Source: a virus
Length of the DNA stretch: 64,000 bases
Virus record (IMG/VR): IMGVR_UViG_3300032086_003797
Span: 32,001 to 96,000 of that record
Reading direction: 5' to 3' (one strand)
A program made the translations under genes and the position numbers. The notes under the pieces are model-generated. The model was given only the letters and a program-made list of their open reading frames with translations. It searched no databases and was not told the DNA's origin. Numbering within the stretch: the stretch's first letter is position 1; each line of letters opens with the position of its first letter. This document shows, piece after piece, positions 17,653 to 33,072 of the stretch.

Positions 17653-20600
17653 TTGCACATGACAAAACGAATCGAGAGCAAGATTCCTTTTGTGGGACTC
17701 CACGCCCACTCAGGACTTTCCCCGTTTGATGGCTTAGGTATGCCAGGCGAACATATGGACTTCGCCTTTGAGAATGGGATGAATGCCCACTCGCTTACCG
17801 ACCACGGACACATGAATGGCTTATCCTTCCAGGTTGAGCACCTAAAGAAGATGAGGGCAGATGGAAAAGACTTCAAAGCAATCTATGGTTGTGAAGCTTA
17901 CTTTATCAAGTCACACAAGAAGTGGCGTCAACAGTACGAAGAACACAAAGCCAGTAGCAAGCGGCAAAAGAAAGAAGAGTTTGCTATGGTTGTTGAGGAT
18001 GAGAACCGCCAGAAGAAGTTCAACCCTCTAAACATCCGCAGGCATTTGGTTCTATTGGTTCAGAATCAGGTTGGATTGAGCAACCTCTTCAAGCTTGTAT
18101 CGGACAGTTACCGTCCCGAGAATTTTTATCGCTACCCCCGTATCGACTTTGAGATGTTGGACAAATACAACGAGGGCTTGCTTGTTAGCAGTGCTTGTAT
18201 GTCAGGTCCGCTCTTTGGGGACTTTTGGAAGCACCGTGATCCAGTCACTCACGAGTACGACGCAGACATGGTTTTAGCATCGATGCGGCAGACGATCGGG
18301 GAGTTCCAGGATATCTTTGGCGACAGGTTCTACGGGGAGATCCAGTGGAACGACATTCCAGAGCAGCACATTGTCAATGACCTAATCATCCAAGCCTGTA
18401 CCGAGATGGGCGCAGAGGTTATCAGTACATCCGACAGCCATTACCCACGACCAGAATTGTGGAAGGACCGTGAGATGTACCGCCGTATTGGGTGGGCGGG
18501 CAAAGCTCCTTATGAAGATCAGGACGCTCATAGGCTGCCAGAGTCGGTAGAAGAGATCGGCTATGAGTTATATCCTCGCAACGGGGATCAGATGTGGGAT
18601 GCCTACAAGAAGTACGCAGGTCGATCTAAGGTAGAGTATGATGATGACTTTGTGTTGGCTAGCATTGAGCGCACACATCAGATCGCCTTTGATCGTATCG
18701 AGGACTTCCTACCAGACAGCGAAGTTCGCCTACCAGATTTTGTTGTGCCAGAGGGTAGCACGGCAATGCAGACCCTAACAAAGCAGGCACTCAAGGGGCT
18801 AAAAGATAAAGACCTTAAAGACCAAGAGTATATCGATCGCCTCAAGTATGAGTTGTCGGTTATTAAAGATCGAGGCTTCGCTCAATACTTCTTGACGATG
18901 AAGGCTATTAGCGACAGGGCGCAAGAGGAGATGCTTGTGGGTCTCGGTCGAGGCTCGGCAGCAGGATCATTATTATCCTACGTCCTAGACATTACGCAGG
19001 TCGACCCAATCAAGTATGCTCTCCAGTTTGAGAGGTTCCTAACCAAGGGCGGCAAAGGCTACCCCGACATCGACTTTGATGTTGAGGAGCCAATGCAACT
19101 CAAGGAGCAACTCGCAGAGGAGTGGGGGAAGATCGGCGTCAATGTTGTCCCCATCAGCAACTTCAACACGCTCCAGTTGCGCTCACTCATCAAAGACATT
19201 GGGAAGTTCTATGGCGTCCCGTTTGCAGAGGTGAACAAAGTCACAGGCGTCATGATGAGCGAAGCTACCCCTAAAGCCAAAGCAGCCCACGGTCAGACTG
19301 CGGGCGTTTACGTCCCGACATTTGAGGAAGTGAAGAAGTACAGCGAAACACTCCAGGCGTTCTTCGACAAGTACCCCGAGATCGCAACGCATGTTGACAA
19401 TCTTTTTGGCAATGTTCGTAGTGTGAGTAGGCACGCTGGTGGCATCGTTGTGGCAGAGAACTTGGATAAGCACATGCCATTGATCAACTCAGGTGGTGTG
19501 ATGCAAACCCCGTGGAGCGAGGGGCAGAACGTCAGGCACCTTGAGCCGCTCGGTTTTATTAAGTTTGACCTTCTCGGACTCTCAACTCTCCGTATGATTT
19601 CGGGAGCAATTCGACATGTGCTCAAGCGCCATCACGGCATTGAAGAGCCGACCTTTGAACAGGTCCGTGCCTTTTATGATGAGAAATTACACCCCGATGT
19701 AATCGACTTCGATGACCAAGAAGTCTGGAAAAATATTTTCCATAAAGGTAAGTGGGCGGGCGTTTTCCAGATGACCAGCGGACCAGCCCAGGCTTTCTGC
19801 CAAGAGGCAAAACCAGAGTCGCTTATGGACTTTGCAGCCATCACGGCAATCTTTAGACCAGGACCTTTGTCGGCAAAAGCGGATAAGATGTATATTGCCA
19901 ATAAGAGCAATCCAGATCAGGTAGAGTATAAGCACCCGCTTATCGAGGAGGTGCTAGGGGATACATACGGGTTACTGGTGTTCCAAGAGCAGTTGGCTAT
20001 GCTGGCTCACAAGCTGGGAGATAACATCTCGCTAGACGAAGGGAATCTCCTCCGCAAGGTTCTTACCAAGCGTGGCACAGGCAAAGACAGCGTAAGAGAT
20101 AAGATCTACGCTAAGTTTGTCAAAGGCTGCAATGACAAGGGGCTATCGGAGCAGGTTGCTAAAGACCTTTGGGCAAAGATGGTATTCTTCTCAGGCTACG
20201 GCTTCAACTTGTCACATGCAGTATCTTACGGAGCGGTGTCGTTTCAGTGCGCTTGGTTGGCACACTATTATCCGACCGAATGGATCGCAGCGTTCTTGGA
20301 CAAGGAGCCAGAGAAGCGCAAGATGGCAGCAATCAACACAGCCAAGAAGTTTGGCTTCAACATCGTACCAGCCAGCATCAACAAGTCAGGAATGGTTTGG
20401 GAGATCTCCGAGGATGGGCAAAACCTCATCCAGCCGTTGACTGCGATCAAGGGGTTGGGATCAACAGCTATCCAGCAAATCTTGGACCACCGACCTTTCA
20501 ATACGATTGAGGAGTTTATTTTCAATGAAAACATTACTTACTCCAAACTAAACAAGAAGGCACTGGACGTCCTGGTCCGAAGCCAGGCATTGAATGAGTT

Positions 20601-21087
20601 GATGGATGATCGCTTCACAGGGATGAAACACTTTTGGTCTTCTGTGGCAGTCGATCGCCCACGCAAGGAGAAGAACCTAATTGAGAATATTGACGCATAC
20701 AAAGAAGAAGGTAGCTTTACAAAGGAAGAAAAGATAGAACATCTAACAACCTTGACGGGAATCTATCCTATCGATCTAATCATGGATGATTTTACAAAGC
20801 AAGCTCTCATGAATAAGGGTTGCCCTCCCATCTCCGAGTTCGACCCCGAGCTTATCCTTTGTTGGTTCATTCCAAGAGAGATCAAGGTCAAGAAGACGAA
20901 GCACGGCAAGAAATATTATATTGTGTCAGTGACAGATCACAACGGAGCAGATGAGCAGATCAAATGCTGGGGTGTAAAAGACACAGACATTATTAAAACT
21001 AATCGTATTTACGTTGGCAAGCTTAAACATGAACCACGATGGGGATTTAGTACTTACAGCGTCAAGCATAATCTTAGGCTTTTATAA
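17653..21087 (+). CDS. dnaE: DNA polymerase III alpha subunit
   Basis: PHP domain (LHAHS, LTDHG, SDSHY), GRGSAAGS, YPDIDFD, SRHAGG, KFDLLGL, GYGFNLSHA; start probably ATG 17659. Confidence 0.96.
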   Translation: MHMTKRIESKIPFVGLHAHSGLSPFDGLGMPGEHMDFAFENGMNAHSLTDHGHMNGLSFQVEHLKKMRADGKDFKAIYGCEAYFIKSHKKWRQQYEEHKASSKRQKKEEFAMVVEDENRQKKFNPLNIRRHLVLLVQNQVGLSNLFKLVSDSYRPENFYRYPRIDFEMLDKYNEGLLVSSACMSGPLFGDFWKHRDPVTHEYDADMVLASMRQTIGEFQDIFGDRFYGEIQWNDIPEQHIVNDLIIQACTEMGAEVISTSDSHYPRPELWKDREMYRRIGWAGKAPYEDQDAHRLPESVEEIGYELYPRNGDQMWDAYKKYAGRSKVEYDDDFVLASIERTHQIAFDRIEDFLPDSEVRLPDFVVPEGSTAMQTLTKQALKGLKDKDLKDQEYIDRLKYELSVIKDRGFAQYFLTMKAISDRAQEEMLVGLGRGSAAGSLLSYVLDITQVDPIKYALQFERFLTKGGKGYPDIDFDVEEPMQLKEQLAEEWGKIGVNVVPISNFNTLQLRSLIKDIGKFYGVPFAEVNKVTGVMMSEATPKAKAAHGQTAGVYVPTFEEVKKYSETLQAFFDKYPEIATHVDNLFGNVRSVSRHAGGIVVAENLDKHMPLINSGGVMQTPWSEGQNVRHLEPLGFIKFDLLGLSTLRMISGAIRHVLKRHHGIEEPTFEQVRAFYDEKLHPDVIDFDDQEVWKNIFHKGKWAGVFQMTSGPAQAFCQEAKPESLMDFAAITAIFRPGPLSAKADKMYIANKSNPDQVEYKHPLIEEVLGDTYGLLVFQEQLAMLAHKLGDNISLDEGNLLRKVLTKRGTGKDSVRDKIYAKFVKGCNDKGLSEQVAKDLWAKMVFFSGYGFNLSHAVSYGAVSFQCAWLAHYYPTEWIAAFLDKEPEKRKMAAINTAKKFGFNIVPASINKSGMVWEISEDGQNLIQPLTAIKGLGSTAIQQILDHRPFNTIEEFIFNENITYSKLNKKALDVLVRSQALNELMDDRFTGMKHFWSSVAVDRPRKEKNLIENIDAYKEEGSFTKEEKIEHLTTLTGIYPIDLIMDDFTKQALMNKGCPPISEFDPELILCWFIPREIKVKKTKHGKKYYIVSVTDHNGADEQIKCWGVKDTDIIKTNRIYVGKLKHEPRWGFSTYSVKHNLRLL

Positions 21088-21096
21088 CATATAGTA

Positions 21097-21106
21097 ACTA
21101 TTTATA
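21097..21106 (+). promoter_or_regulatory. Putative phage late-promoter motif ACTATTTATA
   Basis: Same motif at 25782, 28209, 62497 and on the minus strand at 40883, each just upstream of a gene start. Confidence 0.55.
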
Positions 21107-21149
21107 TTGTATTACCGCACCCGCAAGGTGCCCAAAGGGGATTTATCAA

Positions 21150-21389
21150 ATGAAGATTACTAAAGAACAACTCAAACAAATCATTAAAGAAGAAGTTGCT
21201 AGAGAGATGAACGAAGAGTACAGCACACAAATGGAAGTACTGTTCCAAGAGCTTATGCGAGTAGCCCAAGAGATGGGTGGAACACCAGAGATTATGGATG
21301 ATCTTCTAGCTATGCAGAATCGCCATGGTGGAACAAAGCCAAGCGAAACTGGTGCTGGCGATATAGACATGAGCAAGATGGACATCTAA
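21150..21389 (+). CDS. MKITK-tag protein 1
   Basis: Starts MKITKEQLKQIIKEE. Confidence 0.8.
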   Translation: MKITKEQLKQIIKEEVAREMNEEYSTQMEVLFQELMRVAQEMGGTPEIMDDLLAMQNRHGGTKPSETGAGDIDMSKMDI

Positions 21390-21390
21390 G

Positions 21391-21660
21391 ATGAAGATTA
21401 CAAAGCAGCAACTAAAACAAATTATTAAAGAAGAGGTTGGTCGCTACGCAGACCTTGGTAAAAACCCTCACGCAGACCAGCCACACGTTGCGGCTTTAAT
21501 GGAGATGCGTCAAAAGATCGGTTCACTTTCAAACGACATTGTTGATAAGTTGGGCGGCAGCGTTCCGATTCAAGATGCACAGAGTTATCTTGATGATGCT
21601 GCTAGGAACATCTCTAAGGCAATGGACGAGATCATGTTAGCATTGGAGATGGACTCATGA
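21391..21660 (+). CDS. MKITK-tag protein 2
   Basis: Starts MKITKQQLKQIIKEE. Confidence 0.8.
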   Translation: MKITKQQLKQIIKEEVGRYADLGKNPHADQPHVAALMEMRQKIGSLSNDIVDKLGGSVPIQDAQSYLDDAARNISKAMDEIMLALEMDS

Positions 21661-21758
21661 AAAACTTTTTACACAAATTAGTTAACTTATTCAATAGCAG
21701 CCACTGTTGCTGCTGCTGTGGCTGTTGCGCTTGCACTAGCTGCGAAGGGGCATGTTAG
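21657..21758 (+). CDS. 33-aa Cys-rich (metallothionein-like) peptide
   Basis: MKNFLHKLVNLFNSSHCCCCCGCCACTSCEGAC; overlaps the upstream stop (ATGA) and abuts the next ATG. Confidence 0.6.
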   Translation: MKNFLHKLVNLFNSSHCCCCCGCCACTSCEGAC

Positions 21759-22130
21759 ATGAAAGAACTATTATCAGAGTGGCGCAAGTATATTACAGAA
21801 GTCAGGTATTCTGGCAACCAGGGCGATCGACAAAAAGAAGTTGTCGAAGCAATGCTCAAAGAGCTTGGTTTGGTCGGTGACGAAAACACAGACAAAGCAA
21901 CATACGCATACACCTACACGCTCAGGTCTGTAGCAAAAAATCAGAACCTTAACGACAAGCAGAGAGCGGCGCTAGAAGACCCTCGCTTCAAGAAAGCTAC
22001 TGGCATGTTCATGGAGTTCAAGAAGGAACTAGAGGGACAAGATGCGGACCCAGAGATAATTTTTGAAACTGCAACAATGCTAACCAAAGAGGCAGGTAAT
22101 CGTCTATCTGACGAAGATGATTTAGGCTGA
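21759..22130 (+). CDS. Hypothetical protein with MKELLSEWRKYITE leader
   Basis: Amphipathic N-terminus ending I-T-E; lies inside the tag cluster. Confidence 0.75.
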   Translation: MKELLSEWRKYITEVRYSGNQGDRQKEVVEAMLKELGLVGDENTDKATYAYTYTLRSVAKNQNLNDKQRAALEDPRFKKATGMFMEFKKELEGQDADPEIIFETATMLTKEAGNRLSDEDDLG

Positions 22131-22140
22131 GGGATAACAA

Positions 22141-22380
22141 ATGAAAATTACAAAACAACAATTACAACAAATAATCAAAGAGGAACTCCTCAAGGAACGG
22201 CTGGACGAAGAACTTGAGGTTGTTATGCAACACCTAGAGAAGGCACAGGAACTTCTTGGAGATTATATTAGAGAACAGGGGGGTGACTACCATCCGCTTA
22301 TGGACGCAGAAGATCAACTTAGGACCGTAATTGGTGACGTTGGTAGAAGCGGCAGCGAAGGCGCTGGATTCGGATTTTAA
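22141..22380 (+). CDS. MKITK-tag protein 3
   Basis: Starts MKITKQQLQQIIKEE. Confidence 0.8.
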   Translation: MKITKQQLQQIIKEELLKERLDEELEVVMQHLEKAQELLGDYIREQGGDYHPLMDAEDQLRTVIGDVGRSGSEGAGFGF

Positions 22381-22381
22381 A

Positions 22382-22558
22382 ATGAAAATCACCAAAGACC
22401 AACTGCGAAATATTATTAAAGAAGAAATCTCAGATCGTGACAAAGATACGATGAATGATGTTATAGCAGAGCTTAAGAAAGCCGTGCAGGCACATAAGTC
22501 CCAGCATGAAAGACTACAAGCTATCCTAGACAGACTAGTAGATAGCGAGGGAGATTAA
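22382..22558 (+). CDS. MKITK-tag protein 4
   Basis: Starts MKITKDQLRNIIKEE at ATG 22382. Confidence 0.8.
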   Translation: MKITKDQLRNIIKEEISDRDKDTMNDVIAELKKAVQAHKSQHERLQAILDRLVDSEGD

Positions 22559-22559
22559 A

Positions 22560-23210
22560 GTGAAAATCACAAAAACTCAACTACGAAATATTATTAGACA
22601 AGAGTTAGCAGAAGAAACCCAAGGCGAGATGAACCTGGCGGGGATCAATAAGACGATCCATGCTGGCTTGTTAGATCGTGGCAGAGACAACGACCTTTAT
22701 GATGCACTGGTCAAAGCCGCTGTAGAATATGAAGAACACTTAACTAAAGTGCTGGCGAGTATTATTCCAGATATGAAGAGCAAGCCAATTGCTCACATAG
22801 AGTCAATCACCACAGGTGTTTTGAGGTATGATATATATTACCCAGAGCATATTGAGATAGAACTCAAGGCTATTCCAAACCGAGGCGACACATCTAAAAC
22901 CGTATTCAACCTTAGTGTACAGTTCCCCTTTGGTGATGATAAGCTCGAAGACGAGAAATATGATGCCCTCAAGAAACTAAGAGGCGGTCATGGAAACATC
23001 GGCAGCGTAAAGGGCGTGTTGAATCTATTGGCACAAGGCGGCAGCCTTTATAAGAGCCAGACCAAAGGCTTGGCAGCCGAGCCAGAAGGTCAAGGCGAAC
23101 TGCCATTCGGCGAAAGCAAAAAACGCCATATTAAAATCTCAAATAACACACTGAATAAAATTATTCAGGAAGAGCTTAGAAATGTTTTATTGGAGAAGGG
23201 GAGCAAGTAG
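22560..23210 (+). CDS. MKITK-tag protein 5 (tag at both ends)
   Basis: N-terminal MKITKTQLRNIIRQE and C-terminal IKISNNTLNKIIQEE. Confidence 0.8.
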   Translation: MKITKTQLRNIIRQELAEETQGEMNLAGINKTIHAGLLDRGRDNDLYDALVKAAVEYEEHLTKVLASIIPDMKSKPIAHIESITTGVLRYDIYYPEHIEIELKAIPNRGDTSKTVFNLSVQFPFGDDKLEDEKYDALKKLRGGHGNIGSVKGVLNLLAQGGSLYKSQTKGLAAEPEGQGELPFGESKKRHIKISNNTLNKIIQEELRNVLLEKGSK

Positions 23211-23213
23211 AAC

Positions 23214-24131
23214 ATGAACATCAAACAACTCAGAGAGTTAATTATAGAAACACAAAGAGAGATGCTACAGGAGCGTCAAAGCTTTTTGCTTGATCAGCCT
23301 GGCGTAGTCAATGAAGAACTACTGGATGAGGGTGTTTATGATAAGGGCATTCTCAAAGCAGTCTTCACAGCGGGCGGACCAGGCAGTGGTAAATCTTATG
23401 TGGCTGACGTAATGTTTGATGCCAGAGAAGCTGGCAAGGATAAGCAGTTTGATGCTGCCTCGTTTGTTGGTCGCTATGGGCTTAAATATGTTAATAGCGA
23501 CAACTTGTTTGAGATAGGCCTCAAGAAGATGGGTATCCCACTCGCTGATCTTGGTGCCATCTCGCAAGCTGCCAAAGAAGGCGGCGAGTATAAAGGACAA
23601 GATGCAAAAGAACTAGCACAACAGATTGGTCTGCTGGGTAAGCGAGCCGACTCTACCCGAGCCATCGCCAAGGGTAAGCTAGCAAAGCTTCAGGGCTATT
23701 ATGCCGCTGGTCGCCTGGGGATGCTGATTGATGGTACTGGCAAAGATTATAATAAGATGGTGCAAAAAAGGCAACGCTTGATTGACCTTGGGTACGACAC
23801 CTACATGATCTTTGTGGACACCTCCCTAGATCGTGCTCTAAAGCAAAACGCAAAGAGAGAAAGAAAGTTAGACCCTGAAGAAGTACAGAAGATGTGGCAG
23901 CAAGTTCAGGACAATAAGGAAAACTATCAAGAGCTATTTGGCGCTAATAATTTTACAATCGTTGTCAACAATGAGCCAGTGCCACCAACCAAGGAAGCAA
24001 CAAGATCGGTGCAGAGATTCGCCGAGGCTCCAGTTGAAAACCCTCTGGGTCAATCTTGGATGAACGTACAGCTTGCCGCCAAGGATACTTCGGGTGACGC
24101 ACCCTCAGAAGAACCTTCCGAAGAAGAATAA
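23214..24131 (+). CDS. P-loop kinase (zeta-toxin/AAA_33-like) with tag-like leader
   Basis: AGGPGSGKS, YVNSD, LIDGTG, MIFVDTSLDRALKQNAKR; leader MNIKQLRELIIE. Confidence 0.75.
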   Translation: MNIKQLRELIIETQREMLQERQSFLLDQPGVVNEELLDEGVYDKGILKAVFTAGGPGSGKSYVADVMFDAREAGKDKQFDAASFVGRYGLKYVNSDNLFEIGLKKMGIPLADLGAISQAAKEGGEYKGQDAKELAQQIGLLGKRADSTRAIAKGKLAKLQGYYAAGRLGMLIDGTGKDYNKMVQKRQRLIDLGYDTYMIFVDTSLDRALKQNAKRERKLDPEEVQKMWQQVQDNKENYQELFGANNFTIVVNNEPVPPTKEATRSVQRFAEAPVENPLGQSWMNVQLAAKDTSGDAPSEEPSEEE

Positions 24132-24155
24132 ATAAATCCTTTACAAATAGTATAG

Positions 24156-24464
24156 GTGTGGTATCCTTATAAAGAAAGGGGTACAGTGGATAAGAAACAA
24201 AAGAAAAGCCTCAAGCGCAAGGCTAAGAATAAAAAGCAGAAGCAAGCGTCTGAGGAAGCCCAACGGCGGATGCAGAAGCAGATTAATTTGTTTGACAAAC
24301 TACCAAAAACATGTTCTACTTGTAGTATGGAATTCCCAAAGACAAGAGAAGCACACATGAGTTGGAAAGTAGTAGTTAGAGCTAAGAACGAGATGGTTAG
24401 GTTATTCTGCCCAGCCTGTCAAAACAAAGTCACTGAACTTGTAGGAGAACAAAGTGAAGTTTAA
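24156..24464 (+). CDS. Basic zinc-finger hypothetical protein
   Basis: CSTC and CPAC pairs. Confidence 0.65.
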   Translation: MWYPYKERGTVDKKQKKSLKRKAKNKKQKQASEEAQRRMQKQINLFDKLPKTCSTCSMEFPKTREAHMSWKVVVRAKNEMVRLFCPACQNKVTELVGEQSEV

Positions 24465-25500
24465 AGAAGCAGTCACTTATGATGATATGCTTTTGGTGCC
24501 GCAGTACAGCGATATCGAAAGTAGGAGCGAGGTAGACATTACAAACTACCTTGGGCACAGAGAGTTTACTTTACCTATCATTGCTTCACCGATGGACACC
24601 GTGTCTGAAACAGAGATGGCAGTCACCATGATTAACGCTGGCGGGCTTGCTGTACTCCACCGTTACAACTCTATCACAGAGCAACAAGCTATGGCAGTCG
24701 AAGTAGACAAGGCTACTAACTTGGTTGAGAAAAAGCTCGCCGCTGCTATCGGCGTGACGGGTGATTACCTAGAGCGTACCGAGGCGCTTATCAGTGCTGG
24801 TGTTGATATCCTCTGTGTGGATGTTGCCCATGGACATCATGCCTTGATGAAGAAAGCACTTACGACTTTGCGGCAAGAATATGGAAATAATATTTATATT
24901 ATGGCAGGCAACGTCTGCACGTTAGAAGGTATCAACGATCTTGCTGATTGGGGTGCCAACGCAGTGCGCTGTAATATTGGTGGCGGCTCCATTTGTAGCA
25001 CTCGTATAGTCACGGGTCATGGATTGCCAGGCTTGCAAACAATCTTTGATTGTGCTAAAACAGACAGAGATGTTGCAATCATCGCAGATGGCGGAATCAA
25101 AACCTCTGGAGATATTGTCAAAGCCCTAGCCGCAGGAGCCGACTTTGTGATGTGTGGGTCTCTTCTGGCAGGCACAACTGAGAGTCCTGGCAGGGTGATC
25201 AGTCTACCCGATAATAGCAGGGTCAAAGAATATCGAGGCATGGCCTCTAAAGATGCACAAATGAACTGGCGCAACAAGTCTTCTACCCCAGAGGGCGTTG
25301 CCTCATATATTCCATTTAAGGGCAGTGCTATTGATATCTTGAGGGATCTTGATGGCGGTATTCGCAGTGGATTATCTTACACTGGTGCTCGTAGTATTGA
25401 CGAGCTACAACATAAAGTAGAGTGGGCCCGACAAACCTCAGCAGGCTTGATCGAGAGTGGTACACATATCCTAACAACCCAAAGCGGTCGGAGAAAATAA
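24454..25500 (+). CDS. guaB: IMP dehydrogenase/GMP reductase family, CBS-less
   Basis: [45 protein letters not shown]. Confidence 0.9.
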
Positions 25501-25501
25501 A

Positions 25502-25768
25502 TTGTATAAGTTAGAAAATGGTAGCATTTGTTTTGATTTCTTTGACAGGCTCAGTAAGTCATGCAGCAAGCAAGAATGTAGACACTGGATCGACTACGAG
25601 GGAGATAGTAACTGTTCAGTAGTTTGTGCAAATAAAAACCCAGGCGGTCTAAGCCTGCGAGACGTCGCCGATCGATTACAGATTAGCTTCCCGAGAGTCA
25701 AGCAAATTCAAGATAAAGCAATGGAAAAAGCAGGCAAAAGAGGACTTTTTGATTTCATGGAGGAATAA
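25502..25768 (+). CDS. Stand-alone sigma70 region-4-like HTH with Cys-rich N-terminus
   Basis: LSLRDVADRLQISFPRVKQIQDKAMEK. Confidence 0.7.
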   Translation: MYKLENGSICFDFFDRLSKSCSKQECRHWIDYEGDSNCSVVCANKNPGGLSLRDVADRLQISFPRVKQIQDKAMEKAGKRGLFDFMEE

Positions 25769-25846
25769 TACTTTTTACCCAACTATTTACTAACAGTTGA
25801 CGAAGACGTCATCTAAGTATATCTGATTTATTAAGGAGTTGAATAA

Positions 25847-26389
25847 ATGACAAAGCAAGATAAACTACTAAACGAACAGACCATCCGCAGATGGGCTAAG
25901 TTAGCTGACGTTAACGTCATCAGCGAAACATTCTTCGCAGACGAAGAAGAAGTTACAGAGAATACCGAGACAGAAGAAACTGACGAAGAAGAAACGGTAA
26001 CCGAAGACGGTGCCGCTACTGAGGAAAACACCATCGAAGAAGAGGCTCACGAAGAGGGCGAGGAAGAAGGTGATATGGATGTAGAGATGGACATGGGCGA
26101 CGCAGACGATGCCGAAGGCATGGATGTTGTTCAAGCTGTCCTAAAAGCTCTTGAGCCATTTGGTGTTGAGACTGAAGAAGATGATGAAGCAGAAGAGGCA
26201 GCACCAGAAATGGAAGCTGGCGAAGCTGAAGATGCCGCAATGGCAGCCGAAGATCCAGCAATGGATCATGGTATGGGAGATCGCTATAACCGCAAAGACG
26301 AGCAGATCGATCTAGAGGTTGTTGATGAAGAGGCTTTAACTGAAGCAGTGCTCAAGCGAGTTCTTGAGCGAATCCTTACTAAGAAGTAA
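25847..26389 (+). CDS. Highly acidic protein, scaffold/internal-head-like
   Basis: Very Glu/Asp-rich; helical ends LLNEQTIRRWAKLA and LTEAVLKRVLERIL; late motif at 25782. Confidence 0.65.
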   Translation: MTKQDKLLNEQTIRRWAKLADVNVISETFFADEEEVTENTETEETDEEETVTEDGAATEENTIEEEAHEEGEEEGDMDVEMDMGDADDAEGMDVVQAVLKALEPFGVETEEDDEAEEAAPEMEAGEAEDAAMAAEDPAMDHGMGDRYNRKDEQIDLEVVDEEALTEAVLKRVLERILTKK

Positions 26390-26421
26390 AGAAAGCCTTT
26401 ACACTTTGTCATTTATAAAGT

Positions 26422-26460
26422 AAGATGTAGGCCAGGGCAACTTGGTCTACATCTTTTTTT
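26422..26460 (+). terminator. Rho-independent terminator
   Basis: AAGATGTAGGCCA..TGGTCTACATCTT stem followed by a T run. Confidence 0.8.
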
Positions 26461-26481
26461 ATTTTATTGAAAGTTTAACTT

Positions 26482-26859
26482 ATGAGAGCAAGTGTAAGAG
26501 ATATTTTGAACCTGCTAAAGTTTGTAGGAGCTAGTGACGATGATAAGGTTGTCACCGCTGAAAAGCTTTTTGTAGCCAACAGGGTTCTTAATATAGCATA
26601 TGAGAAAATCGATAAAGGGCACATGGAGGTGGCAGACTTATCCCAGTATATCCAAGCCCTGATAGAGTACCGAGATGGGACGCTAGAATTTAATTTTGAA
26701 ATCGATGAACAGACAGGCGAAGATAAGGTATACTTTACACGCCAAGAGCAATCTATATACAGTAAGTACGCTGGTCAATTCAGGAACAGCAATCTTTATA
26801 ACGACTTGAAGTCAAGCAAAGGAAAATCTACACATGCCGAAGAAGACGAAGAAGAATAA
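26482..26859 (+). CDS. Hypothetical protein
   Basis: 125-aa ORF. Confidence 0.6.
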   Translation: MRASVRDILNLLKFVGASDDDKVVTAEKLFVANRVLNIAYEKIDKGHMEVADLSQYIQALIEYRDGTLEFNFEIDEQTGEDKVYFTRQEQSIYSKYAGQFRNSNLYNDLKSSKGKSTHAEEDEEE

Positions 26860-27577
26860 GGAAGAGGTCGAAGTACTAATTCCAGAATCCGATGCAGAAC
26901 TTGATGCTGCTTTGGAAATTGTTTCAATTGAGGACATGACTGAGGAAGAGATCAGGGAGGTAGTCCCTACATTAGTAGAGGTGGCTACTGAGAAGAGGAC
27001 CCCACGAGCTATTAACTTCTGTGGTAGTCTTGACGAAGAGGCAGCCTCCGCTATCATTTCAGCTATGATCTATCACAACTATAACAATAGTCTTGTTATG
27101 ATCAACACCGAGAAGACAAAGCAATACATGGCTGTAAAGCCTATGCAATTCTATATCTCAACATTTGGTGGCAACGCCGCAGACATGTTTGGCATCCACG
27201 ACTTGATGTTGTCAATGAGGTCGTCAACACCTATTGAAACAGTAGGACTCGGAAAGGTTATGTCTGCTGGTGTTCTGCTGCTGGCTTCAGGTGCTGAAGG
27301 CTGTAGGTTCATTGGTAGGAACACAAGAGTCATGATCCACTCGCTTCGTGCAGGACATCACGGTGCCATGCACGAACTGGAGACTGAGTACGAAGAAACC
27401 AGGTGGCTACAGGATCAATACATTCAGGCTCTAGCTAGCGTAACTAACATGAATAAGAGAATGATCAAGAAGATGATGGAAAGGAAGACAAATGTTTATA
27501 TCAATGCTAAGCAGGCTATTGAATTTGGTATTGCCGATCGAATCCTCGATCAGTCCTACTGGGATGTCCCAGAGTAA
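26834..27577 (+). CDS. clpP: ClpP-like protease subunit
   Basis: YISTFGG, catalytic Ser in MSAG, His in RVMIHS, AIEFGIAD. Confidence 0.85.
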   Translation: MPKKTKKNKEEVEVLIPESDAELDAALEIVSIEDMTEEEIREVVPTLVEVATEKRTPRAINFCGSLDEEAASAIISAMIYHNYNNSLVMINTEKTKQYMAVKPMQFYISTFGGNAADMFGIHDLMLSMRSSTPIETVGLGKVMSAGVLLLASGAEGCRFIGRNTRVMIHSLRAGHHGAMHELETEYEETRWLQDQYIQALASVTNMNKRMIKKMMERKTNVYINAKQAIEFGIADRILDQSYWDVPE

Positions 27578-27593
27578 GGAAGAGGTAGAAACA

Positions 27594-28205
27594 ATGAGTT
27601 TGCGGGAAATTATAGCTGATAGAGAAGCCGTCATTGCAGCCTATGAGAAAAAGGGCTACATGTTTTTTGACGGCAATAAAGATTATAATGTTAACATCTT
27701 CGGCGTCAGGGTAGACAACCCAGACAGCAATCGCTTTGACGACTACCTGTGTGCTGTATACAGAGAAGGCGGAGAGTGGAAACACCACGTTTGGAATGCT
27801 ACCACGGACCCAGGAAAACACTGGCTAGAAAACCCACTAAGCCCTAAGGGCACGGCTATCCTTATTCCAGGGCAGTATCGCTCAACCTGGAAGCTTGCCA
27901 AGCACCAAGGCAAGTACGAGGCACTGTGCCAGAGGAAGCCAGTTAGAGTTTGGCGTGACAACAACAAGGATGATATCCTAGATTACGGCTGTGAAGAAAC
28001 CCAAGAGGGTCTATTTGGCATCAACATCCACAGAAGCAATCCAAGGACACAATCTTATCTAGTAGAGAAATGGTCAGCAGGCTGTCAAGTGTTCCAGAAG
28101 GTTGACGACTATAATCTCTTCATGGAGATATGTAATAAGTCTGCAAAGGCTTTTGGCAATTCATTTACATATACTCTGTTTGAAGAGCGGGATTTTGCTA
28201 GTTAG
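27594..28205 (+). CDS. Putative cell-wall enzyme (YkuD/L,D-transpeptidase-like; possible endolysin)
   Basis: GINIHRS...WSAGCQV His/Cys motif; TTDPG. Confidence 0.55.
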   Translation: MSLREIIADREAVIAAYEKKGYMFFDGNKDYNVNIFGVRVDNPDSNRFDDYLCAVYREGGEWKHHVWNATTDPGKHWLENPLSPKGTAILIPGQYRSTWKLAKHQGKYEALCQRKPVRVWRDNNKDDILDYGCEETQEGLFGINIHRSNPRTQSYLVEKWSAGCQVFQKVDDYNLFMEICNKSAKAFGNSFTYTLFEERDFAS

Positions 28206-28239
28206 AAAACTATTTATACATTGAGGAGTACTTTTTACC

Positions 28240-28524
28240 ATGAACACATTTCAAATTACTAAAGCTAGGCTCAAGCAAATTATTAAGGAAGAGCAGCAAA
28301 AGCTCGATGAGGAGAGCCAGAGCTTGGAAGAAAAGTCAACTAAGAAGTATGACGACAACCCTAAGCTTAAAGGTGATCAAGATGAATTGCCCGACGGGCT
28401 CCAGAAAGCTATCATTGATAAAGAAGGCGGTGACGCCGATGAGGAAGAAGAAGAGAAGAACGAAAGTTTGGAACTTGAAGCTATGATCCGACAGGAAATA
28501 TTAGCAGCCTTAAACGGAGAATAA
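28240..28524 (+). CDS. MKITK-tag family protein 6
   Basis: FQITKARLKQIIKEE, C-terminal LEAMIRQE; late motif at 28209. Confidence 0.8.
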   Translation: MNTFQITKARLKQIIKEEQQKLDEESQSLEEKSTKKYDDNPKLKGDQDELPDGLQKAIIDKEGGDADEEEEEKNESLELEAMIRQEILAALNGE

Positions 28525-28525
28525 C

Positions 28526-30517
28526 ATGCCAGGGCACAATCCCTATCAATCTCTAGCGTCAGATCCTAACGTGGCGATGGAATACAAGAACAAGATCAAC
28601 CAATTGAACCAGCGACTAAACGTCAATGGATACAATTACGATCGTGACTTTGACGGCATGAACGATAAGCAGCGTTATATATTTACTATGGGGCTGTTTG
28701 TTAGCCCTGAGCAAGCCGACAGTATCGATGATTATGTTGAGTTTGGTCATGATAATTGTGACTGCCCTGATGTGGTAGACGACCTACGTCAAACTTGCCC
28801 CACCCTGATGGCTGGGATAAAAGATACCCAGCATAGTATGAGAGAGACGCAAACAAGAACCATAGAGATGGGGCTAGAATTTCTCATAGAGCAATGTATT
28901 GACGAGATTATTCAAGAAGGCAGGGGTGTGATGCACCCAGACACCGTTGGACTTAAGCTTACCAACAAGGAAGGTCAAGCGATTGAGACAGTCGGGCAAC
29001 AGTTTATTAAGATAGGCGAGCCCGAAACAATAACAAATCAAGCGCAACTCGCTCTAGCTGTTTATCAACTTATAGCCAAGCAAAATAAAATTCCTACTCC
29101 CAACGACTTGAAGTCAGCCCTGTCTAACAATAAGCTCAGTAAGCTTGTCCTGTATAGCAGCGCCGAGGGGCAAGAGGATAAATTGCCTACTAGGGTCAAG
29201 TCAGCCCAGATTCTCCTTGCGAAGGCAGACAAAGGGAAGGCTCTAGGAAAAGAGGTGTACGCTTTTATAAAATATGGCAGCGGGCAGACAAGCCCAGGAC
29301 CACCATGGCAGCAAACACAATTCCGACAGCAGACAGGCTTCGGCTCTAAAACCACACAGGCTGGGAAAGAGATTCAAGAAGTAGGTCCTAGTTTACTGGG
29401 CGGCAGTCGTGACCAGAAGATGGCTCTCAACTCTGTCCCAGGCTCACTTGACAAGTCCATATTGGACAAAATAGACACTGCTCTAGCAAGAAGCCTCCCT
29501 GCTTATCTCAAGGCAGCCGTGGCGGGGCAAGCCTTACCTGTTCTACAGTTCGAGTCAGAGGAAAACAGGGATCAATACTTGCCATCAATCTTTAAATACC
29601 TAAGCGAAGTCACGGGTCCAATATTCTTAGCCACAGGCAACAAGACATATTTGGGTAACGACGCCGTACTTGACAGCGCCCTAGAGAATCTACTCAAACC
29701 ACGAGGTGTCAACAACTGGACTGAAAGCGATGGCGTGTCATGGCCTATGTCTAAAAACGAAAAGCTAAAAGACAGCTATGTTCATTTTGGTGATAAGCAA
29801 GATATCATGGTTAGTTCAAAAGCTGGGAAAGGTGCTAACCCAAGTGTGGCAGAACTCTATGCAGAGTTGGCGGATATAGAACAGGAAGAGAAGCAACAAC
29901 TAATAGACCTGTACGGACCAGGCAACCCTTCAGGGATAAACTTGTATACTGGCAATATGGAAGACCCAGGCATTGTGGACATGATGGCTGACAAAAGATA
30001 TAGTTGGTGGGATTTAGTTATACGGATGCACGTTGAAATAGCAGGCGACTACAATCTGACAGGGGATCAATACAATCAGATTAGAGAGATGATGAAAGCT
30101 GAGAAAGCTAAAAGATGGCCTAGAGAGATGGCACCAGTAGCGGACAAAAATATAAAAGCCAAACTTGATAAGTTCAAGGCACTCTTCAAGCCCAACACAG
30201 ACAAGTCCGATTATAGCGAGGCGCTCCATATTATTGCTGGCATGGCAAAACTAGCACAGCAGGCGGTCAACAATGCGCAGGGTAAAGACGGAGAAAAGAT
30301 CTTTACAAACTTTGCTAAAGCGATGTATAATAGATTACCTTTAGTACAGATCTACGCAAAGAGGGGAGCTTATGTGGCAGATGGCGATACAGGCGTAAAG
30401 TCGGGACCATTAGATATCATCTACCCAGCTAAGTTTGATGGCGAGATCCGAGTTGACGGCGGCAAGAACTACTTTGCTACTGGCAACAAAGGCAAGATGA
30501 CCATTAAGATCCCATAG
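28526..30517 (+). CDS. Large hypothetical protein, possible PD-(D/E)XK-like domain
   Basis: 663 aa; internal LEFLIEQCIDEIIQE; LKDSYV..MVSSKAGKG. Confidence 0.55.
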   Translation: MPGHNPYQSLASDPNVAMEYKNKINQLNQRLNVNGYNYDRDFDGMNDKQRYIFTMGLFVSPEQADSIDDYVEFGHDNCDCPDVVDDLRQTCPTLMAGIKDTQHSMRETQTRTIEMGLEFLIEQCIDEIIQEGRGVMHPDTVGLKLTNKEGQAIETVGQQFIKIGEPETITNQAQLALAVYQLIAKQNKIPTPNDLKSALSNNKLSKLVLYSSAEGQEDKLPTRVKSAQILLAKADKGKALGKEVYAFIKYGSGQTSPGPPWQQTQFRQQTGFGSKTTQAGKEIQEVGPSLLGGSRDQKMALNSVPGSLDKSILDKIDTALARSLPAYLKAAVAGQALPVLQFESEENRDQYLPSIFKYLSEVTGPIFLATGNKTYLGNDAVLDSALENLLKPRGVNNWTESDGVSWPMSKNEKLKDSYVHFGDKQDIMVSSKAGKGANPSVAELYAELADIEQEEKQQLIDLYGPGNPSGINLYTGNMEDPGIVDMMADKRYSWWDLVIRMHVEIAGDYNLTGDQYNQIREMMKAEKAKRWPREMAPVADKNIKAKLDKFKALFKPNTDKSDYSEALHIIAGMAKLAQQAVNNAQGKDGEKIFTNFAKAMYNRLPLVQIYAKRGAYVADGDTGVKSGPLDIIYPAKFDGEIRVDGGKNYFATGNKGKMTIKIP

Positions 30518-30530
30518 AAAGTGAGGCTCG

Positions 30531-33072
<2,542 letters not shown>

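Follow-up and report, generated by a model that had tools for sequence, protein, structure and literature searches.

Why should a virus place one and the same peptide of about 15 residues at the start of a series of otherwise dissimilar genes? The stretch considered here (the window) is the 64,000 nucleotides that make up bases 32001-96000 of one 174,625-bp virus record, IMGVR_UViG_3300032086_003797, estimated to be 95% complete; genome coordinates refer to the whole record and all other coordinates to the window. Six genes of the window, those starting at 21150, 21391, 22141, 22382, 22560 and 28240, open with the peptide MKITKxQLKxIIKEE (tag A), and the question is what this peptide does for the proteins behind it. 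The answer favoured here, to which we assign a probability of roughly 0.68, is that tag A and a second leader, tag B, act as capsid-loading signals that a gp21-type protease cuts off. The gp21 protease of phage T4 cuts after Glu in L/I-X-E (PMC9026906). As the leader ends in the cutting motif of the phage's own head protease, it is most likely a clip-off signal for capsid loading, as in the T4 internal proteins. Read in this way, the window most likely has a first cargo cluster at 21150-24131 and a second unit at 28240-30517. The first-pass annotation of this DNA had already proposed a modular address label, cut at (I/L)-x-E, that loads a variable cargo; the proposal agrees with all the sequence tests run (protease, P3 and P1 positions, upstream motif, turnover, no match in cellular genomes) and is something that we infer rather than observe.

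Two leaders on unrelated payloads

A tag A profile scanned against all six frames of the 174,625-bp genome gives 12 matches at 20-32 bits, followed by one at 11.5 bits and by noise that stays at or below 6.2 bits. All 12 strong matches are on the + strand and inside real open reading frames (ORFs); seven of them are in the window (21150, 21391, 22141, 22382, 22560, 28249 and 23130) and the other five near the right end of the genome. The tag on six window genes and its second copy in gene 22560, both reported in the first-pass annotation, thus stand out clearly from the background. When 878 candidate N-termini are compared all against all, without use of the tag, the comparison recovers tag A together with a second family of equal size and almost nothing more. 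This second leader, tag B (MKKLLTEWRKYLxE), is present 10 times in the genome, chiefly at genome 164-170 kb; its window member is gene 21759, which had been taken for a variant of tag A and has to be reassigned. Altogether, about 21-23 genes of the genome are tagged. Orthologues are named below by the loci of related viral contigs: 80 viral contigs carry the DnaE polymerase gene found next to the cluster, and the closest relatives, L004, L005 and L006, have DnaE proteins 95, 90 and 85% identical to the one encoded here. The tagged genes of the window, with their tag A profile scores, and the kinase-like gene that closes the cluster are:

21150..21389 (+): tag A gene, 79 residues, 27.5 bits; acidic payload with an isoelectric point (pI) of 4.2
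21391..21660 (+): tag A gene, 89 residues, 28.8 bits; starts 1 nucleotide past the preceding stop codon
21759..22130 (+): tag B gene, 123 residues (MKELLSEWRKYITE); member of the second N-terminal family
22141..22380 (+): tag A gene, 79 residues, 27.1 bits; a second L-x-E site at residue 23
22382..22558 (+): tag A gene, 58 residues, 32.2 bits; orthologues in L004-L006
22560..23210 (+): tag A gene with a GTG start, 216 residues; N-terminal tag 25.4 bits, C-terminal copy 20.1 bits
23214..24131 (+): P-loop kinase-like protein, 305 residues, with the short tag-like start MNIKQLRELIIE
28240..28524 (+): tag A gene, 94 residues, 23.4 bits; tag from residue 4 (28249-28296), acidic payload with a net charge of -16

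Behind the leaders, the proteins have little in common. BLAST sorts the 75 tagged ORFs of the genome and related contigs into 40 payload groups, and the seven window payloads, stripped of their tags and compared profile against profile (hhalign), do not exceed 2.3% probability in any pair; the payloads are thus unrelated and not plain paralogues, as first described. That they might nonetheless be ordinary paralogues with slower-evolving N-termini draws on the make-up of the window payloads, most of which are small, acidic and helical; among proteins of that class, true kinship is not easily detected. It is barely tenable, given the uniformly low profile scores and the spread of tagged payloads, which range from ~40 to ~520 residues and include kinase-like, ADP-ribosyltransferase, polybasic and Cys-rich proteins. 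The window payloads have a pI of 4.2-5.9, and Pfam and PHROGs give no match for any of the small ones, nor for the proteins of genes 22560, 25847, 28240 and 28526. The payload of gene 21150 belongs to a family of 62 marine-metagenome proteins, nearly all of which retain the tag; orthologues of gene 21391 are present in L004 and L005 and absent from the same place in L006, and those of gene 28240 have an identical extension of three residues in L004-L007, L010 and L011. The kinase-like protein matches AAA_33 at 25.9 bits, just below the cut-off of 27, Zeta_toxin at 21.3 bits (cut-off 22.3) and phrog_12810. In the distal cluster, the cargos of tag A include two polybasic proteins with net charges of +28 and +35, and one cargo of tag B is an ART-PolyVal ADP-ribosyltransferase (32.9 bits, cut-off 31.2). 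The AlphaFold2 model of the 22560 protein, built on an alignment of 10 sequences, is poor (mean predicted local distance difference test (pLDDT) score 47.9), and an Atlas search with this protein gives no usable lead.

Conservation of the tag is at the protein level, again as the first-pass annotation had it. Between any two window copies of tag A, 3-8 of the 7-14 identical residues are differently encoded; Leu8 is written with four codons (CTC, CTA, TTA and CTG), and the longest exact run of DNA shared by two copies is 14 bases. These figures bear on an explanation at the level of DNA, in which the peptide would be the passenger of a conserved junction (stop, start and A-rich 5' coding stretch) used for translational coupling or cassette recombination. 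The gene junctions are tight and stereotyped (TAA-N-ATG/GTG-AAR-ATY-AC), relatives differ by whole tag-bounded cassettes, and the same junction, read in another frame, often lies ahead of internal tags (see below). However, codons vary freely at the residues that are kept, distant relatives preserve the peptide with conservative replacements (MKVTKSYIKQLIKEEL), and conservation extends 45 bases into the gene, where it peaks at residues 12 and 14 and not at the start codon. A mere passenger is thus quite improbable; the junction may well aid recombination as a second use of the tag.

The end of the leader and the head module

Both leaders are most constrained where a head protease would read them. 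Thr4 and Ile12 are invariant in the window copies of tag A and Glu14 is present in 9/11 copies, and [LI]xE ends exactly at residue 14 in 17 of the 21 full tags. Over different payloads, the tag A logo has its highest information at E14 and I12 and collapses past position 16, in a sample partly biased to exact copies because the search was word-based; in the tag B logo, E14 ties with Met1 and Lys2 for the top value, L12 is high too, and the collapse comes past position 14. With information peaks at positions 12 and 14 in both families, two unrelated leaders thus have the same geometry, which is that of the protease rule. A second h-x-E near residue 22 is present in many tag A proteins.

The genome that carries the tags also carries a T4-type head module, located outside the window and made up of a portal gene, the gp21 protease, an acidic scaffold-like gene (genome 15671-16687) and gp23. 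The protease, a Peptidase_S77 (PF03420) at genome 13928-14524, scores 95.6 bits against a cut-off of 27, and the gp23 major capsid protein (MCP; PF07068), at genome 16712-18523, scores 213 bits; Peptidase_S77 is likewise encoded by four of the five large tag-bearing contigs, which are 54-79% complete. The nearest MCPs in the phage collection, ~40% identical, are those of Microcystis phage Mel-JY01, Flavobacterium phage immuto and Rhodothermus phage RM378 ('far-T4'). Based on this kinship and on the T4-type head module, the phage is a distant, uncultured phage of the T4 type. The N-terminal stretch of the MCP is invariant through AAQLLKE and variable right after it; this pattern has the look of a maturation site and resembles the QIIKE-E of the tag, the site itself being a predicted one.

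The nearest relative of tag A stands directly beside the protease gene. A gene for a protein of 123 residues (genome 14521-14892) overlaps the stop codon of gp21 (ATGA), starts with MKKSQLKELIKEC and is the source of the 11.5-bit match of the tag A profile. Across ~50 related loci, the overall identity of this protein is 33-45%; its N-terminus, MKKSELKNIIKECVKEVIFEEG, is the best-conserved part, and strong conservation is limited to the first ~40 residues (MKKSELKNIIKECVKEVIFEEGVLSGIITEVAQGL). It is likely a prohead core protein and probably the source of tag A. In the all-against-all comparison, the N-terminus of the kinase-like protein 23214 pairs only with that of this gp21-adjacent protein: what had been listed as a variant of the tag is a short relative of it and not a full tag.

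The tagged genes and the structural genes also have an upstream motif in common. Each block of the window sits behind the same ACTATTTA motif, as noticed in the first-pass annotation, and the motif comes once per block, not once per gene. In the 64-kb window, it is found only at 21097, 25782 and 28209. The two sites ahead of tagged genes are:

21097..21104 (+): ACTATTTA motif, candidate late promoter, 53 nucleotides ahead of the first tagged gene; position conserved in L004, L005 and L006
28209..28216 (+): ACTATTTA motif, 31 nucleotides upstream of gene 28240; kept in L004-L006 and L010

Over the whole genome, ACTATTTA is present 13 times in forward and 2 times in reverse orientation and ACTA[CT]TTA 18 times forward and 2 times reverse, nearly always intergenic and 15-72 nucleotides upstream of a + strand gene. 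ACTAYTTA is found at the head of every tag cluster (21097 and 28209 in the window; genome 163803 and 173408) and also ahead of the scaffold-like gene, the gene with a head-tail adaptor match, the tail sheath gene and a giant fibre-like gene encoding 3706 residues. In relatives whose DnaE is just 50-60% identical, the motif lies 30-50 nucleotides upstream of the first tag gene.

A leader on unrelated proteins could also be a handle for a partner other than the capsid, whether an oligomerisation or docking helix for a host or phage protein or an N-terminal degron through which a Clp-type protease would time the removal of these proteins. A low-confidence model predicts the tag as an amphipathic helix set apart from the payload, some N-terminal recognition motifs of ClpX resemble Met-basic-hydrophobic starts, and the phage has a ClpP-like gene inside the region:

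26834..27577: ClpP-family protein (PF00574, 93 bits) with an acidic N-terminal extension of ~85 residues

This gene is kept in 51 of the 80 DnaE-linked loci, with two copies in some relatives, and ClpP is found in two of the five tag-bearing contigs, all of them incomplete fragments. A handle of this kind leaves unexplained that conservation is highest at P3 and P1 of the gp21 rule in two unrelated tags, that the nearest relative of the tag heads the gene beside gp21, and that tag genes and structural genes have an upstream motif in common; a degron would in addition have to act from internal tag copies, where an N-terminal signal could not work and which are common (20 of the 31 longer tagged proteins in the metagenome library carry an internal second tag). 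We regard the handle or degron as unlikely. As a candidate for the head protease itself, the ClpP-like gene was rejected, since the head protease is a separate gene of the gp21 type.

Position 4 of tag A, invariantly Thr or Ser, brings in yet another explanation, namely that the leader is recognised by a modifying enzyme, either of the type linked to ribosomally synthesized and post-translationally modified peptides (RiPPs) and radical-SAM enzymes or the adjacent P-loop kinase acting on Thr4. The kinase-like gene closes the tag cluster of the window and itself has a tag-like start. Tag B, however, is without a conserved hydroxyl residue. A radical-SAM-linked leader is excluded because the genome, 95% complete, is without a radical-SAM gene: it gives no match to PF04055 in a search that matched 14 of 14 control genomes. 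As for the kinase, relatives show no linkage between it and the tag clusters: it is located at 62-66 kb in contigs G001 and G002, whose main tag clusters are at the contig ends, and it has no match in G003 (87% complete, with 6 tags). The usual substrates of such P-loop kinases are, moreover, small molecules or nucleic acids. Only a very slight chance is left to a modifying enzyme, and the reading as a capsid-loading leader is the one retained.

In terms of mechanism, capsid loading would proceed as follows. The tagged genes would be transcribed late, from the ACTAYTTA-type promoter; the amphipathic leader would bind the scaffolding core of the assembling prohead, so that the payload is carried inside; the gp21-type protease would cut after Glu14 (in the context I/L12-x-E14) and free the payload, which would remain in the head and enter the host along with the DNA. 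Where leaders are internal, they would give tag-payload-tag-payload chains that can be cleaved. As targeting would need the leader alone, cargo genes could be gained, lost, reordered and fused at the leader. Late timing, core binding, cleavage, packaging and injection are all steps that we infer.

Cassettes, internal leaders and longer modules

Turnover of this kind is what the related loci display. The number of tag A matches is 9 in L004, 10 in L005, 7 in L006 and 7 in the window, with differences in content and order, and five large relatives have 3-16 copies each; cargo loci are hypervariable among related phages, in tag A counts, order, fusions and the presence of cassettes elsewhere in the genome, and the leader is kept. 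The cargo found at genome 165 kb here is fused ahead of the 22560 payload in L005. In L006 (12391-13995), the kinase-like gene is a fusion of 534 residues made of a full tag A, an extra domain of ~230 residues and the kinase, as against the short tag-like start of the window copy. The suggestion that cargo is recruited by fusion to the tag is thus matched by relatives (L004-L006) that gain, lose, reorder and fuse tagged genes.

Gene 22560 illustrates how internal leaders may arise. The second tag of its protein, at 23130-23177, lies 26 residues ahead of the stop codon, and in relatives the internal tag of this payload is followed by 100-180 residues of further payload. Writing X for the 22560 payload, four layouts are found: [tag][X][tag + 12 residues]; [tag][Cys-rich module][X][tag + 12]; [tag][module][X][tag][Y]; and a form that lacks the leading tag, [X][tag][Z]. 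From these layouts, the C-terminal copy, present as first described (20.1 bits), is better taken as the leader of a downstream cassette that was fused in frame and is truncated here. Internal tags are often preceded by E-N-K-(M/I/K) or E-S-K-M (proteins P0253-P0283 and P0093-P0101). E-N-K-M is the usual TAA-A-ATG gene junction in another frame; whether two cassettes are fused or separate thus seems to depend only on the frame with which the upstream gene runs into the junction.

The tag appears to belong to viruses. The exact peptide MKITKxQLKQIIKEE, back-translated, has 0 matches in 596 Gb of prokaryote genomes against at least 119 matching stretches in viral contigs, which answers the concern, raised in the first-pass annotation, that it might be equally common in cellular genes. 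Among 50,697 sequenced phage records, a query of 24 tag residues has a sole match at chance level (E = 2), in a small gene of the nrdC region of Pectobacterium phage PM2, which was dropped. No paper describing these leaders was found, and literature searches on the motif strings were likewise blank.

A longer module of comparable design is found at the end of the second unit, in the 663-residue protein of gene 28526:

28526..28918 (+): N-terminal module (residues 1-131) of the 663-residue protein; closes with a long helix bearing IIQE (E131)
28919..30517 (+): cargo part of the 663-residue protein; fold not recognised

The IDEIIQE of this protein had been counted as a copy of the tag; the tag profile does not detect it, and it is instead the end of a separate module of 130 residues. 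The module (residues 8-135) is found at the N-terminus of at least 45 cluster representatives, with downstream parts that belong to at least 12 unrelated groups, and its alignment ends at a helix closing in [LI]xE in 34/46 cases (38/46 if Val and Met are allowed). The AlphaFold2 model of the 28526 protein has a mean pLDDT of 87.5, rising to ~97 for residues 11-100, and the module is helical, with its last helix at 92-133 and IIQE at 128-131. In layout, as predicted, this amounts to a long targeting propeptide whose cargo can be exchanged. The C-terminal domain (about residues 220-662) is found again in proteins of 440-530 residues and at the end of proteins of 1500-2200 residues (P0174, P0184, P0203, P0213 and P0215). 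The cargo has no sequence match in Pfam, PHROG or PDB, eight long relatives of the 28526 protein have none in Pfam or PHROG, and Foldseek finds no match of the model in the PDB at E <= 0.001; in BFVD, the predicted-structure neighbours of the cargo are uncharacterised phage proteins. Two fold assignments were rejected, a zincin-protease core for the N-terminal module (best VIA-align Z 5.8) and an endonuclease-like fold for the C-terminal domain (VIA-align Z 3.8-4.7), both below the meaningful level. An Atlas search of the 28526 protein leads to unnamed viral clusters, with hints of RE_HaeIII and R-HINP1I clusters at 0.85-0.87 that are far too weak to name it.

Between the two tag units lies a gene with a further kind of N-terminus:

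25782..26455 (+): stand-alone unit, with the ACTATTTA motif at 25782, a 180-residue acidic protein at 25847-26389 and a terminator at 26422-26455

The protein of gene 25847 has a net charge of -50 over residues 13-180, and the terminator behind it is strong, with a 15-bp stem. Its LLNE had been taken for a copy of the tag; the tag profile fails to detect it, and the protein carries neither tag A nor tag B. The conserved N-terminus, LLNEQTIRRWAKLA, contains RRWAKLA, and the pattern RW[AGS]xLA has two matches only in the six frames of the genome: this N-terminus and the conserved C-terminal tail of the scaffold, NRWA(T/K/V)LAG. As a lead found post hoc, RW[AGS]xLA could be a third way to address a protein to the prohead. 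Just upstream of the 25782 motif, at 25502-25768, is a gene for a protein of 88 residues with a Cys-rich N-terminal half and a helix-turn-helix like region 4 of Sigma-70 (23.6 bits, cut-off 24.1), which might be a small transcription factor.

Several observations weigh against capsid loading and have to be set beside the evidence for it. The [LI]xE motif is short and frequent in helical sequence rich in Glu and Lys, and in the tag A copies of gene 22560 and genome 165247 Glu14 is missing and the motif comes only at residue 18. Since several copies of one tag do not count as independent observations, the real support consists of the two tag families and the 130-residue module. The cleavage site of the capsid protein is a prediction only. 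ACTAYTTA, also present ahead of a PhoH-like gene, is a putative late promoter by virtue of the genes behind it and of nothing else. The window genes have no relative among the 50,697 sequenced phage records, in DNA and protein searches, and thus no cultured relative there; the nearest structural neighbour of the 28526 cargo from a cultured phage, S-PM2p143, is annotated as hypothetical and not as a virion protein. Finally, compared by eye, the tags and the T4 capsid-targeting sequence (CTS), MKTYQEFIAE, share only the Met-Lys start and the I-x-E end; the resemblance of tag A and tag B to the CTS is therefore one of analogy, not of homology.

The neighbours of the tag units complete the picture of the region. 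The cluster is preceded by the polymerase gene already mentioned:

17653-21087: DnaE-type polymerase

The other genes around encode a GMP-reductase-like dehydrogenase, the ClpP-family protein, a Mom-like protein and GroEL. Downstream of the 663-residue protein, the Mom-like protein (PF25680, 50 bits) is directly followed by a full-length GroEL (phrog_5725, E 1.6e-133), the two together covering 30531-33072.

Known loading systems and the meaning of the leaders

In phage T4, the first ten residues of IPIII (MKTYQEFIAE) suffice for loading into the head, with residues 4 and 7 serving targeting and residues 8 and 10 processing (PMC8442874), and the internal proteins of T-even phages are diverse, with only this sequence in common (PMC3012670). 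The tags resemble the T4 CTS, which is found on IPI, IPII, IPIII and Alt and is removed by gp21, in being short N-terminal leaders on unrelated proteins that end in I/L-x-E. Both systems have a gp21-family protease, a gp22-like scaffold and gp23, cargo loci that vary between relatives, and a cargo that includes an ADP-ribosyltransferase (as Alt) and basic proteins. They differ in that the leader here is 14-16 residues long and not 10, that two unrelated leaders and a 130-residue module are in use, that ~21-23 genes are tagged where T4 has a handful, and that frequent internal leaders chain payloads. The lineage is different as well, an uncultured marine 'far-T4' clade with a DnaE-type polymerase, known from sequence alone.

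In the giant phages phiKZ, 201phi2-1 and SPN3US, a diverged gp21 homologue processes many proteins of the head interior, cutting behind a short motif whose last residue is Glu, and the sites are redundant (PMC9026906, PMC5694885). The 130-residue module of gene 28526, ending in [LI]xE, resembles their long propeptides in layout; the phage here, by contrast, has 175 kb and a T4-type gp23. To our knowledge, the propeptides of giant phages are not one short portable tag common word for word to unrelated proteins. Iyer et al. are said to have described, in 2017, the polyvalent proteins of phages and conjugative elements, reportedly the source of the ART-PolyVal name. With these, the tagged proteins would share the character of an arsenal of effector domains, shuffled and delivered: ART-PolyVal is matched by one cargo of tag B, and the tag-payload-tag-payload chains recall multi-domain delivered proteins. 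The cargos here, however, are mostly separate small genes with their own leaders and have a protease motif at the joints; no polyvalent marker domain such as MuF turned up, in searches of which none was aimed at MuF. A more general likeness is that to encapsulin cargo peptides and P22 scaffold fusions, where a short portable peptide that binds the interior of an HK97-fold shell, or the scaffold, loads any cargo. Encapsulin peptides are usually C-terminal and uncleaved, and the likeness is one of principle only.

What is known, then, is the T4 capsid-targeting mechanism that is being extended, and what is new is the leaders and the larger cargo set in a distant lineage. A broader reading, tentative and somewhat short of even odds, is that a large clade of far-T4 phages, marine and uncultured, marks its packaged proteome with several interchangeable address modules, namely the two leaders of 14 residues, the N-terminal domain of 130 residues with [LI]xE at its end and, possibly, the scaffold-like RWAxLA of the 25847 protein, and that internal leaders make its cassettes into polyproteins cleavable by the protease. 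If this is true, sequence alone would be enough to list what thousands of uncultured phages inject, for the most part proteins of no known family.

Proteins packed in a phage head and injected with the DNA act ahead of any phage gene expression; among those of T4 are one that inhibits a restriction enzyme and an ADP-ribosyltransferase by which the host RNA polymerase is modified. For uncultured marine phages, we know of no present way to tell which genes encode injected proteins. A leader recognisable in the sequence would single them out, which amounts to ~21-23 genes in this genome and dozens of distinct tagged payloads in the library searches; as nearly all of these payloads are of no known family, the tag points to a pool of candidate proteins for anti-defence and host take-over. 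As a short portable loading tag for a different capsid, the leader is also a potential tool, as the T4 CTS has been. Loading in the manner of T4 would, in addition, be shown to be an old and flexible mechanism, with leaders that differ, a single protease rule and cassettes swapped at the leader.

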